A stretch of DNA of 64,000 bases. Source: a virus. Position numbers and translations under genes: made by a program. The notes beneath the pieces are model-generated. The model made no database searches and was not told the DNA's origin. It was given only the letters and a program-made list of their open reading frames with translations. Positions 55,450 to 62,786 of this stretch are shown piece by piece. The DNA lies in the IMG/VR virus record IMGVR_UViG_3300028581_000018, positions 45,450-109,449 of that record, one strand, 5' to 3'. Every line of letters begins with the position of its first letter. Position 1 is the first letter of the stretch.

Positions 55450-55813
55450 ATTTACTAGATACCATACAATAACACCCCCCCATACCTACATAAATTTACC
55501 CACCCCCCCCCACCATAGGGATACAAAACAAAATACAATAGAGACTGTAAGTGGGGCCCTATTCGCCGCTCCCCGGCGCGCGCACCTCGCGGGCCCACCC
55601 CCTAGTGCCACGGTGCACTCGCCGCAATGCCACCGCGCGCCAACAAAAAGTTTTCTGGGGAAAACTTTGTTGTTGTCTTGCTATGCTGTGCATGCGGTGC
55701 ATGCACTACGTTGTCATCGTGCTGTGCATGCTATGCATGCACCTGCTTGCGACACAGCGCAGCGACACAGAGCAAGGCATTTCTCTAATACCTTAACCTT
55801 AAACCCTTTTCTT

Positions 55814-56017
55814 ATGAGCAATTCTAAGCCTTCTTTTACACCGCGTAAAGTACGCGTTGACCTGTTCTCTGTTGCTTTAGCCGACGATAAAGCCTTGACT
55901 GCTATGCAGACAAAGCTTAATCAATGGCTTACTGCAGGAACATTGGTCAAGTACCAAATACATACGACAAGCACTCATGCTTTGTTTAATGTATGCCGAC
56001 GTAAAGACGCTGAATAA
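55814..56017 (+). CDS. Early hypothetical protein
   Basis: Likely start MSNSKPS at 55814, between the motif and a terminator. Confidence 0.65.
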   Translation: MSNSKPSFTPRKVRVDLFSVALADDKALTAMQTKLNQWLTAGTLVKYQIHTTSTHALFNVCRRKDAE

Positions 56018-56085
56018 GCGTCTTTTTTCTTTGTAGGAAGCCGCAAGGCATTTCTTTTACCTCTTAACAATTAACCCTATATCTT

Positions 56086-56370
56086 ATGAGAACTCCATTC
56101 GGATTTTACAAAACGCCTTTTGGCACAGCCTTGCATTTGCGCTACAAAGACAAAGAAAGCGCAGACCTCATTAGCGAATGCCTTGAGCGCTCTACAATTT
56201 GGCTCGGCAAGAACGACTGCTGGCACATTGAAGGCTTGATTAAGCCTGGCTACGAGCAACTTACCAGAAAAGCCATTCTGCTAAATCGCTCTCGCACATT
56301 ATCTAAGCAGCAGCGGGAAATTCTTGACGAAATCAATGCTATTGACCAGGCTATTGACTTAGGCTACTAA
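56086..56370 (+). CDS. Early hypothetical protein
   Basis: Motif upstream, terminator downstream. Confidence 0.65.
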   Translation: MRTPFGFYKTPFGTALHLRYKDKESADLISECLERSTIWLGKNDCWHIEGLIKPGYEQLTRKAILLNRSRTLSKQQREILDEINAIDQAIDLGY

Positions 56371-56377
56371 CGCATAC

Positions 56378-56402
56378 GCCCCGCATTAAGCGGGGCTTTG
56401 CT
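56378..56402 (+). terminator. Intrinsic terminator
   Basis: GCCCCGC attaa GCGGGGC ttt. Confidence 0.7.
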
Positions 56403-56454
56403 TATTCTTCGCAAGGGCATTTCTTTTATAACTTAACAATTAAATCTTTTACCT

Positions 56455-56664
56455 ATGAAAGCAGTTATCTATCTACTCAAAGCGTGGTTTGTAGCCCTAT
56501 TAACCGCGTTTGCCCTACCATTTAGCCTTAGTCTGTTGGCTGTATTGACAACAGACATTACCTTTCACCAAGTGTTCCACTCTGAATTGTTTTGGTTACC
56601 ATTTGGCTTCATATTGGTTATAATGTTCATTGTAATATGTGGATTTGAACCATATGAAGATTAA
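56455..56664 (+). CDS. Early small membrane protein (two TM segments)
   Basis: Two hydrophobic segments. Confidence 0.65.
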   Translation: MKAVIYLLKAWFVALLTAFALPFSLSLLAVLTTDITFHQVFHSELFWLPFGFILVIMFIVICGFEPYED

Positions 56665-56689
56665 TATTAGGTTTAGGGTTTAAGTAATT

Positions 56690-56722
56690 GGCTCCGCAGT
56701 AATGCGGGGCCTTTTGCTTTTT
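56690..56722 (+). terminator. Intrinsic terminator
   Basis: GGCTCCGCA gtaa TGCGGGGCC tttt. Confidence 0.75.
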
Positions 56723-56835
56723 AAAGAGCGGGAGTGGTTAGACGCAGTGCCCATCTCGGGGGCCATTTATCTTAATCCAGCATGCTTACCTCGACGCGGC
56801 AAGGCATTTCTTTTATTACTGAAACCTTATATCTT

Positions 56836-57048
56836 ATGATCAAACATGCACAAACGGTTGTCACTAAACAAGAGTATTTTGACACCACGCTGCGGAATGG
56901 CGAAACAATCCCTGTTCGTATCGAGCGCGTAATCTATCATCGCACCAAGACGATGACTGTACGCAAATGGTGCTTGAACTCTGGTATGATCATCGACGTG
57001 TTCCGTGATTTGCCTGCACCACCTGAGTTCGCAATCGTGGTCAAGTAG
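56836..57048 (+). CDS. Early hypothetical protein
   Basis: Likely start MIKHAQ at 56836. Confidence 0.6.
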   Translation: MIKHAQTVVTKQEYFDTTLRNGETIPVRIERVIYHRTKTMTVRKWCLNSGMIIDVFRDLPAPPEFAIVVK

Positions 57049-57050
57049 CC

Positions 57051-57083
57051 AAGCATAAGCCCCATTTGGGGCTTTGCTTTTTT
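57051..57083 (+). terminator. Intrinsic terminator
   Basis: AAGCCCCA tt TGGGGCTT plus a T-run. Confidence 0.7.
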
Positions 57084-57158
57084 ATTTGCAATACTATTAG
57101 GGCATTTCTTTTATTTCTTAAGGCGCTATTGCCACAAAACCCCATAAAATCAAATCAA

Positions 57159-57692
57159 ATGGGACAACTCAAAGCGACGCTAAACGGCGTCTACAATCGT
57201 AACGGCGAAATCGTCAACCGTTATGTGGTTTCAGGTTCAGCAGCAGACATCGCTGAATTTAAGAAAATCCAAGGTCAATACTTTCGCGAAGACACGCAAG
57301 GTAGGCCCTTGTACTTTCGCCCAAAGTTTGACCCACAAGGGCGACCTCACCCCTCGACGATGCTCATTGAGCCCAATTATCGTGGCGACGGCTTTGTCCC
57401 TGTGTACGACACTATTCTCGCTGACGCAGAATACGCCGAGTCAATTGGCGGTGTCGTAGGACAAGAACTCGGTAAGGCTCTTGCCCTTGAGTTACTCGAA
57501 AAGCGTCGCGCTCTTCGTAGCAATACTCGCGCCGTGGCTCTTGACACGCCTGAACCCATTGAGCAACCGCTCGTTGATGAACAACCCATTGACGACGATT
57601 TCAGCGGGAGCGGGTTAGACGACGAGCCTGTTGCTGAAAAGCCCAAAGCTAAAGCCAAGGCTACCGCAACACCTGATTTGGGGGACATCTAA
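57159..57692 (+). CDS. Early protein with an acidic disordered C-terminal tail
   Basis: Likely start MGQLKAT at 57159; ends ...DDEPVAEKPKAKAKATATPDLGDI. Confidence 0.65.
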   Translation: MGQLKATLNGVYNRNGEIVNRYVVSGSAADIAEFKKIQGQYFREDTQGRPLYFRPKFDPQGRPHPSTMLIEPNYRGDGFVPVYDTILADAEYAESIGGVVGQELGKALALELLEKRRALRSNTRAVALDTPEPIEQPLVDEQPIDDDFSGSGLDDEPVAEKPKAKAKATATPDLGDI

Positions 57693-57710
57693 TCACCCGT
57701 TTGGGTGCAC

Positions 57711-57747
57711 AAGCAAGGCAGGTCTCACACACCTGCCTTGCTTTTTC
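57711..57747 (+). terminator. Intrinsic terminator
   Basis: AAGCAAGGCAGGT...ACCTGCCTTGCTT plus a T-run. Confidence 0.8.
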
Positions 57748-58261
57748 TACATTATCCTTTTTTTTCACCATACTATTATGGCATTTCTTTTTCTTCGCAG
57801 GCCCACAGCACAATATCCACGCGCAGCGGGAGTGGGGTTGACACCAAAAAATAGGAAATCGTATCTTGTTGATTATCAAATCCCTAGAGTGAAACCAAAA
57901 CCTCCACTCCCACTCATCACTAGATACAAAATACAAAATTGTTTACGCTGTAACATACGCTGATTATCAAGTAGTTAGTCTCATTTTCCCACCGCGTGGA
58001 TAAACTCTTGTAAACCCTATTGTTTACGCTTTACATTGTTTGCGTATATTCACTGTTGGTAGAGAACTGCATTTATATCGTCAATTACTTTAAGTAACAC
58101 GACGTAAGTGTCTGAGTATCAGTGAGTGGGATACCATATACCCCTTATTATCTAACAATTGATAATCAAACTAATCTTGTATACTTCCTAGTTTAACTAC
58201 TGGATATAGCTTATCTAACATAACTAATTCAACTAACATAACTCTTAAACTCTAATGCTTT

Positions 58262-58498
58262 ATGGTTACTTCTTCTTCTATATCTATATTAGGTAGGGTT
58301 CTTATTGTTGATAGAGAGAATCCGCGCGCACGTGCATTAGATACCTGCGCTGATTGTGGTCACCCTATACAGGGTTACTCACCAATCGTGGTTCACACCT
58401 ACACCAGCAAGCACGCCGATAAACCTGAATCAACTCGTATCATATGTCAATCATGTGATTACCTTGACTATTGTGAACCATATAGTATATTTGGTTAA
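58262..58498 (+). CDS. Small Zn-finger protein
   Basis: CADCG...CQSC. Confidence 0.55.
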   Translation: MVTSSSISILGRVLIVDRENPRARALDTCADCGHPIQGYSPIVVHTYTSKHADKPESTRIICQSCDYLDYCEPYSIFG

Positions 58499-58667
58499 CA
58501 ATTAAATTCACCGCATGAACAAACGATTGTGGTACTATTCTAAAATGGGGTGATGACCTACATCAACAACCTACAGTGCGGGGCAGCAATCCTCGTCGCA
58601 ACTAGCATGACTAACCAATAATGTCTTGCACACTTCCTAAGCACGAATTAAACTGCTTCATCATTTT

Positions 58668-58787
58668 CCCTTTGCACACTCACTAGTGAGCAGTTGTAAT
58701 ATGACCATTCTCGTAAAAGTTCCCTTAAATGTGGGTTGAGATTTACTCTATGGAGGGCGATAATATATTACAACTGAGTGCAGAGGG
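58668..58787 (+). ncRNA. Structured RNA motif, copy 1
   Basis: CCCTTTGCAC/GTGCAGAGGG outer stem and CAGTTGTAAT/ATTACAACTG inner stem; repeated at 59385. Confidence 0.6.
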
Positions 58788-59089
58788 ATTACAATATATC
58801 AACTGTAAATAACTTAATTAGGCTTTTTAACCTTTTGTGCCTGAATAAGTTTACACGAATTAGTAATAATTCTGGGGTTGTTGATATTAAACAAAAGTCT
58901 GCCTATTAAATAGGGAAGCTGCAACAGGCGTTAAATCGTGCGAGTAATAGCAGCATACAAGGATCGCAACCTTGGGAAACAAGTATTTACGTGCAAAGAG
59001 GGAATTTGATAGAAATATCAATAATCGACTGTATTTATACAGGAAGACAACTTAATGTACTAAAGGAATACTTGTTTCTTTTAATTTGT

Positions 59090-59332
59090 ATGTCAACACC
59101 TATACATAAAATCGTTTTTATCTTCAATTCAACTAATACTAAACAATTAGAAGAAGATACTAACAAAGTTAAAATGATTATTAAACGTAATTGTGAAGTT
59201 GTTACTGGCCCTGTATGTTTTAAACATGAAAGACAGCTTACAGCTTACATTAAGTTTAGTAATACATTAAATAGATTAATGGAATTTAAAAACCATAAAT
59301 CTGTTAATGTGCATATTTTAACTAAATCCTAA
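59090..59332 (+). CDS. rpsJ: Ribosomal protein uS10/NusE homologue lacking the ribosome-binding loop (80 aa)
   Basis: Manual alignment to a remembered S10 sequence: KIVFIFNS with KIRIKLKS, VVTGPV with VVSGPI, and HERQLTAYIKFSNTLNRLM...VNVHI with YKRLIDIYSSTAKTVDALM...VEVEI. Confidence 0.65.
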   Translation: MSTPIHKIVFIFNSTNTKQLEEDTNKVKMIIKRNCEVVTGPVCFKHERQLTAYIKFSNTLNRLMEFKNHKSVNVHILTKS

Positions 59333-59384
59333 TAAAAAGGTTGGTTAATGCTGGAATAACCATAAAGCATTATTTTTAATTTTT

Positions 59385-59497
59385 CCCTTTGCACTAACCG
59401 TAAGGTGAGCAGTTGTAATGTTACCTATTTAGGTTATGAAAAGACATTGGCGAGTTTTATACTCATTAGTCTTAACATTACAACTGAGTGCAGAGGG
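59385..59497 (+). ncRNA. Structured RNA motif, copy 2
   Basis: Same arms as 58668..58787, with a different interior. Confidence 0.6.
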
Positions 59498-59740
59498 TAA
59501 ATAAAAAACTCAATAACTTCCCAAGATGTTGAGAGCACAAGTTTTTCTTTGATAATGAGGAGTATAGCCTCACAGTCCGTAGTTTTATAACTAAACCCGT
59601 CTGAGCAGCCCACGCTTATAATATCAAAGTTTTAGGTGTAAAACACAGGATTTTATCTGGTAGACTTCATTTATCAGAGGCTTTATGGTGAGGCTGAAAC
59701 CATTTTTTATTAACCATTTAACCTCTAAAACAAATACATC

Positions 59741-60016
59741 ATGAAACAATTTCTTTTAAACTCTTCTTTAGTGGTTGCAATGATAGGCAGTGCCTTTTTT
59801 GTATCTTCTTTTGCTATTGATGTTGTTGGTAAGGATAACACCCCGCCGGCGCAACCTAAATCTTATGAAGTTACCCAGGCAATTATGGCATTAGAAGATA
59901 TGCGTGACTGGGTAGATGAAGATTTAATGTATGTACAAGAAGACTCTGTATTATATACTCGTCTTCAAGCGTATCGAAACAACCTCGATTTTGCAATAGA
60001 TCATCTTAATAGATAA
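59741..60016 (+). CDS. Membrane-anchored or secreted hypothetical protein
   Basis: N-terminal hydrophobic segment. Confidence 0.6.
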   Translation: MKQFLLNSSLVVAMIGSAFFVSSFAIDVVGKDNTPPAQPKSYEVTQAIMALEDMRDWVDEDLMYVQEDSVLYTRLQAYRNNLDFAIDHLNR

Positions 60017-60049
60017 TTTTAATCTCAAATCCACTCAAAACCACAAATC

Positions 60050-61165
60050 ATGACACAGAATTTTGGAAACTACTATTCACCTGAAAATCAAGAAAAAATT
60101 CAGCAAGTTCAAGCGTTAGAAGATAAAATCGCTCGCAAAATAGCATGGAAAAAGTTGAGTTTAGGTATAGGTTATAACATTACTGAGAAAGATGGTAAGT
60201 TATACTTTTCTATAACATGTTATACACCATCCATAGGCGTATATGGTCAAACATATATGAAAAGACAAACAGAAAATGGTTTGACTTTTGATGGTAAGAA
60301 AGTTAGATTTTGGTTTGGTAAAACTGACTGCTTCCTTAATATGAGCCAACATGACCTTGCTGTAGTGCTTAAAGCATTAAAAATAGACTGGCTTTTATCA
60401 AAGAAAGATACGTTTATTGTTGATCACGCAGTTTCAAAACCTACCATACTAGCAAAGATTTTATCTTTTAAGATTACAAACTTTACAGATTTGACAAAGT
60501 TTCTTATCAAAAATTATAAACTCAGATGCTCGGCAGCAACTTTTGATAACTACGTTACAGACAATTCACATTTATATTTCTTGAAGAAGATAAGCAGGCT
60601 TACAGAAAATGTAGATGAAAATGCAAAAGTCTATTTTGCTGGTACCAATGATTATCAGAACTTAGAAACGCATATCCTCATGCAAGATGTTCTAAATCAA
60701 GCAGAAACCCTCGAGGAAAAAGTTGATTTAAGATGGTCAAGTAAACGTTTAAATGAAGTTCATACTGATTTTACAAGTAGATTAATGTTGTACGAAACAG
60801 ATGCTGTTCCTGAAGACTATTTTGGTATACCAAAAGTGCAGAATATAGCTAACTTGCACGGTATTGAATACATTACGACTAGTAAACGTCTTTACATTGA
60901 AGGTTACACGTTAAAACATTGTGTGTATACCAGCTACGGAGACATTACCAGAAGAAAACAATACCTGGTTTTTCACATTGATGGTCATACACTGGGACTA
61001 AGATTTAGTAAACCTCTGGATAGCAAATCTGTGGTTGCAGAATGGGATCAACTTTATGGTAAGTTTAATTCTAGTCCTGATGATGAAACCACAGTTATAG
61101 CAAAAAGGTTTGTAGAAGAGTTAAACAATGTTCTTCAAGAAGAAAACTGCTTGCTTTCTGTTTAA
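60050..61165 (+). CDS. PcfJ-like domain protein
   Basis: LNEVH...LYIEGYTLKHCVYTSY...QLYGKFN. Confidence 0.75.
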   Translation: MTQNFGNYYSPENQEKIQQVQALEDKIARKIAWKKLSLGIGYNITEKDGKLYFSITCYTPSIGVYGQTYMKRQTENGLTFDGKKVRFWFGKTDCFLNMSQHDLAVVLKALKIDWLLSKKDTFIVDHAVSKPTILAKILSFKITNFTDLTKFLIKNYKLRCSAATFDNYVTDNSHLYFLKKISRLTENVDENAKVYFAGTNDYQNLETHILMQDVLNQAETLEEKVDLRWSSKRLNEVHTDFTSRLMLYETDAVPEDYFGIPKVQNIANLHGIEYITTSKRLYIEGYTLKHCVYTSYGDITRRKQYLVFHIDGHTLGLRFSKPLDSKSVVAEWDQLYGKFNSSPDDETTVIAKRFVEELNNVLQEENCLLSV

Positions 61166-62687: not shown

Positions 62688-62786
62688 AATGTAGATTGAA
62701 TAATGATCTGCTTATGCCCACTAGTCCCTGAAGTAATTCAAACTAGTGGGTACAGCAAATCTTGTCCTGACTACTAAAAGAAAAAT

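Follow-up and report, generated by a model that had tools for sequence, protein, structure and literature searches.

In phage T7, RNase III processing sites lie between the early genes, and T4-type phages carry stem-loop cassettes termed PeSL. The twister self-cleaving ribozyme was reportedly described by Roth et al. in 2014, and its type P1 form corresponds to Rfam entry RF03160. Twister RNAs are defined by three essential helices (P1, P2 and P4), three optional helices (P0, P3 and P5) and two pseudoknots (T1 and T2), and they require a conserved adenine at the cut site together with a conserved guanine (PMC5408937). The L4-P4/L1-T1 architecture is key to their activity, with T2 as the most critical tertiary contact (PMC5408937), and self-cleavage has been put forward as a means of processing polycistronic transcripts (PMC6765202). 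The chemistry of these ribozymes is well understood, but their biology largely is not. Here we describe two RNA elements from a phage genome that point to a large phage family of apparent twister type, so far missed by Rfam, and to a recurrent subclass of that family in which the catalytic pseudoknots appear to have been removed.

Two copies of a junction-forming RNA in one phage genome

The window analyzed here, a stretch of 64,000 nucleotides, covers the final 64 kb of a record of 109 kb, which belongs to a tailed phage that encodes portal, terminase and major head proteins. Its + strand can be read directly to contain two elements in which the same arms surround unrelated, well-folding interiors (Table 1). 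These are the only two copies in the whole record. Exactly two occurrences of the 21-nt 3' arm are present in the window, where none would be expected, and the 13-nt 5' block GAGCAGTTGTAAT is found twice with no mismatch. The interiors and the small hairpins of the two copies show no sequence relation to each other, and in copy 2 the trinucleotide GAG stands between the small hairpin and CAGTTGTAAT.

Both copies are predicted to fold into a three-way junction on the + strand, with free energies of -43.4 kcal/mol (z -4.5) for copy 1 and -45.6 kcal/mol (z -7.2) for copy 2, and the predicted folds contain flawless 10-bp and 12-14-bp helices in each case. A U-G pair in the closing helix makes the - strand of the copies fold less stably than the + strand. 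The initial annotation of this DNA had described constant arms around a variable core that nevertheless still pairs, and had proposed that the arms form a three-way junction. Direct reading and the folds of both copies bear out the former statement, and the fold predictions for the + strand agree with the latter.

Table 1. Positions of the two elements and of their parts in the window.
Feature	Position	Strand	Basis or partner
Copy 1, putatively non-catalytic, twister-derived three-way-junction RNA of subclass 3	58668-58787	+	sequence, fold, model R1
Copy 1, 5' strand of closing helix, CCCTTTGCAC: CCCUU extension and UGCAC (P2 5' strand)	58668-58677	+	pairs with 58778-58787
Copy 1, small hairpin CTCACTAGTGAG (CUCA-CUAG-UGAG) at the twister P4/L4 position, without the UUCCCAAGG loop	58679-58690	+	
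Copy 1, P5 arm, conserved base CAGUUGUAAU/AUUACAACUG enclosing structured cargo	58691-58776	+	
Copy 1, CAGTTGTAAT (P5 base, 5' side)	58691-58700	+	
Copy 1, interior (cargo), 66 nt	58701-58766	+	
Copy 1, ATTACAACTG, followed by A	58767-58776	+	
Copy 1, GTGCAGAGGG: GUGCA (P2 3' strand) and GAGGG, fully paired with CCCUU	58778-58787	+	
Copy 2, same RNA as copy 1	59385-59497	+	sequence, fold, model R1
Copy 2, CCCTTTGCAC, 5' strand of closing helix	59385-59394	+	pairs with 59488-59497
Copy 2, small hairpin ACC-GUAA-GGU (DNA ACC-GTAA-GGT) with GNRA tetraloop, in place of P4/L4	59397-59406	+	
Copy 2, P5 arm	59410-59486	+	
Copy 2, CAGTTGTAAT	59410-59419	+	
Copy 2, interior (cargo), 57 nt	59420-59476	+	
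Copy 2, ATTACAACTG, followed by A	59477-59486	+	
Copy 2, GTGCAGAGGG: GUGCA and GAGGG strand	59488-59497	+	

A family of twister-type elements in crAss-like phages

The exact 17-mer of the 3' arm is present in at least 119 viral loci, nearly all of which are preceded by a corresponding 5' arm. The most frequent form of the 5' half is UUAAUGCACCA(Y)AA-CUCAC-UUCCCAAGG-GUGAG-CAGUUGUAAU, and a search anchored solely on this half returned at least 120 loci, in which the 3' strand GAGUGCAGAGGG is conserved although the anchor left the 3' strand free. The long stem covaries in these 5'-anchored loci (CAGAUGUAC/GUACAUCUG, CUAUUGUAC/GUACAAUAG and others), and hundreds of family copies are found in IMG/VR and metagenomes. 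All loci stem from pattern-anchored scans, with counts that are lower bounds and a composition that is biased by the anchors; comparisons were restricted to the features left free by each anchor.

Canonical members follow the order UAA (cleavage site), P2 (UGCAC/GUGCA), P4 with the L4 loop UUCCCAAGG, an optional P5 and then GAGGG, with the CCC of L4 pairing onto the GGG of GAGGG as the T1 pseudoknot. The P5 interior ranges in the family from a 7-nt loop, in a minimal member of 67 nt (L123:3143-3209), to more than 200 nt. The Rfam twister-P1 consensus, obtained from a canonical twister adjoining one family member, runs P1, UAA, P2, GC, P3, P4 with L4 GUCCCAAGCC, UAAA, P2', GAGGG and P1'. The agreement between the two is element by element, comprising the UAA, a P2 of 4-5 bp with UGCA(C), an L4 with (U)CCCAAG, an arm that follows P4, precedes the 3' strand of P2 and equals the optional P5, and finally GUGCA-GAGGG.

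A covariance model of the family (R1), built from 27 canonical members, gave 108 matches in one set of about 100 loci and 109 in a second set of similar size. Across 106 distinct canonical sequences, pairing is found in 97.3% of cells, with changes on both sides at 20 of 24 pairs, and none of 500 shuffles equalled this result. Furthermore, T1 presents compensatory changes from C-G to A-U in three canonical sequences, support of a kind confined to canonical members, and the fifth P2 pair has become U-A in five. Judged from their sequences, the canonical members are twister-type ribozymes of a variant form, in which the cut is predicted to fall between the U and the A of UUAAUGCAC. They differ from the textbook twister in having a 5-bp P2 with covariation, in the absence of P3 and in T2 partners that are CC:GG instead of GC:GC; these bases are invariant, so T2 is assigned from invariant bases only. 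A further departure from the textbook form lies in large insertions, which are present in P5 and, for a second subclass, in L4 as well. Members of that subclass contain an insertion of about 100 nt in L4, and their P2 5' strand is present after all. The inserted segment is itself conserved, reading GUGGAUAUAAAGACUUCUUAG...CUAAGAUGUGAAACCACCUGAUUAA...UUAAUCAG between the P4 5' strand and UCCCAAGG (L116, L050, L124, L112 and other loci).

No Rfam 15 family reaches its gathering score in the window, cmscan returned nothing relevant at E<=10 in 58000-60200, and neither copy has an Rfam match, in line with the initial annotation. In 20 related loci the element itself was also unmatched by Rfam, the sole matches being to neighboring tRNAs, one twister-P1 and one hammerhead. 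Searches of GenBank phages at blastn sensitivity found no canonical member, and from the window stretch only a neighboring 45-nt element was matched there. The same annotation had looked to further homologs with covariation, and the scans supply such relatives, whose pairs covary. It had also been unable to match the motif to a known ribozyme, a position that is now superseded, since the arms correspond to strands P2, P5 and GAGGG of the twister-type family and the interior to its optional P5 arm.

Loss of the catalytic core in the window copies

Both window copies match R1 over the full model length, copy 1 with 38.9 bits (E 3e-9) and copy 2 with 31.3 bits (E 5e-7), scores of 31-39 bits that compare with 75-100 bits for canonical members. 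By this comparison, the window copies are shown to belong by descent to the twister-variant family of crAss-like phages. They share with the canonical members of that family the arms, the pool of P5 cargos and an intergenic place in early gene arrays. UGCAC/GUGCA and then GAGGG are found in both copies, and the parts retained from twister comprise P2, the conserved P5 base with its cargo, and the GAGGG strand, the former T1/catalytic-G strand.

The cleavage-site adenine is gone from both copies, which read CCCUU-UGCAC where canonical members read UUAA-UGCAC, or (N)UUAA. The L4 sequence (U)CCCAAG is missing as well, with loops of CUAG and GUAA in its place and the L4 columns deleted in the R1 alignment. 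As a result of this replacement neither pseudoknot can form. The GGG that would serve T1 pairs in both copies with the 5' CCC in a nested helix instead, and T2 has no L4 partner. The new 5' CCCUU and the GAGGG thus paired give a continuous 10-bp helix. From these missing core elements we infer that the window copies do not self-cleave. A search for a hammerhead core pattern near the copies found none, and HDV-like, hairpin, pistol and hatchet topologies, assessed by hand, were dropped because their stem order does not fit and Rfam is silent.

A putatively non-catalytic subclass with a replacement helix

About 8% of the 3'-anchored family members are without L4. Scans for this third subclass, anchored on its 5' half (TGCACTAAC...GCAGTTGTAA), returned at least 25 viral and at least 95 metagenome loci, and from these we obtained, as a lower bound, 57 distinct complete elements with one recurring architecture. 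A degenerate pattern scan yielded mostly chance matches and one true member.

The 3' 11-mer is intact in 5 of 14 subclass members compared with 75 of 82 canonical members (p=1.2e-5), and the catalytic G is changed in 4 of 14 and 1 of 82, respectively (p=0.0014). In the larger subclass set, GAGGG is intact in only 32 of 56 members. Among the sequences compared, these counts show that constraint on the catalytic bases is relaxed in the subclass.

The replacement helix, formed by the 5' extension and the GAGGG strand, pairs in 220 of 280 cells across 56 members, against a mean of 210.6 in shuffles that ignore relatedness (p=0.003; p=0.009 with Watson-Crick pairs only), and full sequence turnover is seen within it (AUAAU:AUUUU, UUCUU:GAGAA). 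On a set of 15 subclass members, pairing in this helix was not significantly above that of the shuffles (standard pairs, p=0.135; Watson-Crick pairs alone, p=0.16), and the first 13 members presented nearly no double-sided covariation. Given the outcome with 15 members and the nature of the shuffles, we regard the result with 56 members as supportive, but not conclusive, of a replacement helix maintained by selection. UUCG or GNRA tetraloops close the replacement hairpin in 17 of 57 members, including the GUAA of copy 2. An AA/GA internal loop (CCYAA) is kept in about 17 of 56 members; both window copies belong to the type that is fully closed (YYYUU). The distance to the upstream stop codon has a median of 134 nt in the subclass compared with 342 nt in canonical members, a weak difference (p=0.035). 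Taken together, the relaxed catalytic constraint and the better-than-shuffled new helix suggest that the copies are maintained, non-cleaving structural derivatives.

Module exchange and genomic surroundings

The family elements are intergenic, with downstream ORFs on the same strand in 135 cases and on the opposite strand in 7, and they sit between small, co-oriented genes in uncultured crAss-like phages. The genes that they adjoin in other phages are unrelated. A scan for sigma-70 promoters and terminators revealed no obvious promoter or terminator logic around the window copies, and no relatives of the downstream 371-aa protein were found.

Comparison of individual loci reveals how cargo is distributed over the family. 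A canonical member (L032) and a member of subclass 3 (L091) are about 98% identical over a segment that opens with the first P5 stem base and runs through the whole 3' arm; outside it they share nothing. A common cargo is present in L021, L029 and L064 despite their differing 5' halves, and another is common to L088 and L346, where the hairpin keeps its pairing through two double changes (GCAAG/CUUGC vs GUGAG/CUCAC). Chimeric and truncated forms of the family also occur (L344, L016, L019, L171), with L344 combining two 5' halves and a neighboring element, and the cargo motif of L021 recurs outside P5, just 3' of the L137 element. The exchanges involving L032/L091, the L021 group, L088/L346 and L344 indicate that the arms act as break-points and that the cargo itself is a selected structure. 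The earlier suggestion of a cassette recombination site therefore survives in part: cargo and 3' arm are exchanged between phages as a sharply bounded unit, but no evidence was found that the intervening gene moves as a cassette. The cargos of the window itself have no relatives in about 330 related loci, and their complementarity to the phage genome is not above that of shuffled controls.

Several other elements were noted around the copies. Directly 3' of copy 2 lies a second RNA with conserved ends (59503-59646, + strand), composed of AAAAAACUCAAUAACUUCCCAAGAUGUUGAG-AGCAC-AAGUUU, a variable stem CUUUGAUA...UAUCAAAG and then UUUUAGGUGUAAAACAC; its hairpin loop carries CUUCCCAAG, a motif that is also that of twister L4. 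This RNA ("family B") occurs in about 30 of the loci retrieved, as well as in unannotated DNA of 10 GenBank Crassvirales genomes, and is absent from Rfam. It was considered as a permutation of twister, and none fits. Between the stop codon of the small ORF and copy 2, a module of about 57 nt (59324-59380, + strand), with GGUUGGUUAAUGCUGGAAUAACCAUAAAGCAUU and a U-run, contains crossing pairings detected by eye (GGUU/AACC and AAUGCU/AGCAUU) and is 80-93% conserved in at least 8 other loci. Non-coding blocks at 58533-58658, 58792-58895, 58902-58952 and 59647-59710 (+ strand) match other phage loci at 72-90% identity. The order of the flanking blocks relative to the twister-type elements varies, and the region reads as a string of shared RNA-like modules.

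Elsewhere in the window, GCAAGGCATTTCTTTTA is repeated about six times in 55772-57796 (+ strand), ahead of the small + strand ORFs that open the + strand gene block, and constitutes a candidate phage promoter. Ends resembling a tRNA T-arm and acceptor (CAGGTTCAAATCCTGTCCTCGRCTA, AATCYTGTCCTGACTAC) are repeated at 62758, 63094, 63623 and 63846 (+ strand), and ARAGORN finds no tRNA in the window. At L086 and L341, a family member begins right after the 3' end of a tRNA. In other loci tRNAs, a hammerhead and a twister lie near family elements, and no such ribozyme was found near the window copies. At L088, a type I hammerhead core (2735-2795, + strand; CUGAUGAG...GAAAC...GUC) begins 7 nt after a member of the non-catalytic subclass, and scores 35.5 bits with RAGATH-1-hammerhead, below the gathering cut-off of 56.3.

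The open reading frame between the copies

An ORF of 80 aa is present between the two copies (59090-59332, + strand), with no match to Ribosomal_S10 and no other significant Pfam or PHROG match. The predicted fold of its product, of low confidence (pLDDT 67), is a generic ferredoxin-like beta-alpha-beta-beta-alpha-beta sandwich, for which comparison retrieves S6, HMA, ACT and S10 alike (E about 0.02-0.04). The initial annotation had designated this gene S10-like and had envisaged a nut/put-like element working with a NusE mimic. The designation is not supported, as the ORF has no S10 signature and its fold shows no preference for S10, and without S10 homology in the ORF the proposed antitermination element is left unsupported.

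Integron attC sites present their core sites in the order R''(RYYYAAC)...R'(GTTRRRY). The window elements reverse this order, as GTTGTAA belongs to their 5' arm and TTACAAC to their 3' arm, and an integron attC site was rejected on this basis.

Discussion

We consider it probable that both copies are RNA-level structural derivatives of the twister-type family, which no longer cleave and which form stable junction blocks. The U-A site, L4 and both pseudoknots have been lost from them, and P2, the P5 base with its cargo and GAGGG have been kept. A 5' CCCUU extension zips up GAGGG, and a short stable hairpin takes the place of P4/L4. With modest confidence, we propose that in the early transcript the copies serve as stable blocks built on a three-way junction, in which stacking of the closing helix on P5 would create a near-continuous duplex of about 22-24 bp. 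Such a block may punctuate or stabilize the flanking messages or protect message ends, and a host double-strand RNase of the RNase III type may cut it, thereby replacing self-cleavage. Of the roles initially put forward, a scaffold for variable cargo and a processing signal remain live options.

The copies might instead be neutral relics, that is, dead twisters heading for deletion whose arms would look conserved solely through repeated copying by recombination. The decay of GAGGG in the subclass, the modest covariation within it, the occurrence of chimeric and truncated forms (L344, L016, L019, L171) and the coincidence of the arms with recombination break-points would all be in keeping with such a fate. 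We nonetheless hold it to be unlikely, for the same architecture recurs in 57 distinct members, pairing in the replacement helix exceeds that of shuffles and persists through complete turnover in some members, stable UUCG or GNRA tetraloops have been installed in the replacement hairpin, and the 10-bp and 12-14-bp helices of the window copies are flawless in a phage genome that is tightly packed elsewhere. We also deem it rather unlikely that the module is in essence a scaffold for cargo display, in which the variable P5 hairpin would be the functional part, acting as a regulatory or decoy small RNA irrespective of any cleavage by the core. The same cargo does appear on catalytic and non-catalytic 5' halves (L032 vs L091; L021 vs L029 and L064), the cargo hairpin of L088/L346 keeps pairing through double changes, cargo length varies from 7 to more than 200 nt, and the L021 cargo motif is also found just 3' of the L137 element, outside P5. 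However, both window cargos are without relatives in the roughly 330 related loci and without complementarity to the phage genome beyond shuffled controls, and the minimal member with its 7-nt loop indicates that cargo is dispensable for the family.

It is highly improbable that the copies are still self-cleaving ribozymes with a reduced or different active site. Although P2 and GAGGG are retained, and a genuine hammerhead lies directly 3' of a subclass member in L088 amid a ribozyme-rich neighborhood, the cleavage-site adenine, L4, T1 and T2 are all missing, although the L4-P4/L1-T1 architecture is key to twister activity and T2 is its most critical tertiary contact (PMC5408937). Moreover, the subclass tolerates mutation of the catalytic G, no Rfam ribozyme matches at E<=10, and there is no hammerhead core nearby. 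Direct repeats that bracket a small gene, with arms coinciding with recombination break-points, could be expected of a DNA-level site, or of a nut/put-like antitermination signal acting with an S10/NusE mimic encoded between them. Yet the structure favors one strand through its G-U pairs, it presents RNA-type covariation and tetraloops, the intervening ORF lacks any S10 signature and is predicted to adopt no more than a generic ferredoxin-like fold, and the elements flank unrelated genes in other phages, leaving very little probability for a site or signal of this kind.

If the reading of the copies as non-cleaving junction blocks is confirmed, the twister-type family would have a role beyond cutting, and its third subclass, in which the helical junction and cargo arm are kept and re-stabilized, would provide a natural active/inactive pair for asking what intercistronic ribozymes do in phage early transcripts. 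As a tentative conjecture to which we assign limited likelihood, the twister-derived junction may be a portable natural scaffold, with constant P2/P5 and exchanged structured cargo arms, that serves a cleavage-independent function, for instance in early regulatory or decoy RNAs, and the subclass would be this scaffold stripped to that function. For annotation, this twister-type family offers an assignment for "orphan" repeats that number in the hundreds in crAss-like phages.

The elements have no sequence or structural homology to the RNase III sites of T7 or to the PeSL cassettes of T4-type phages and no associated promoter, and in their case cleavage by a host nuclease is a prediction. By analogy, they nevertheless appear to resemble both systems as repeated, structured and co-oriented intercistronic elements of early transcripts that mark points of module exchange.
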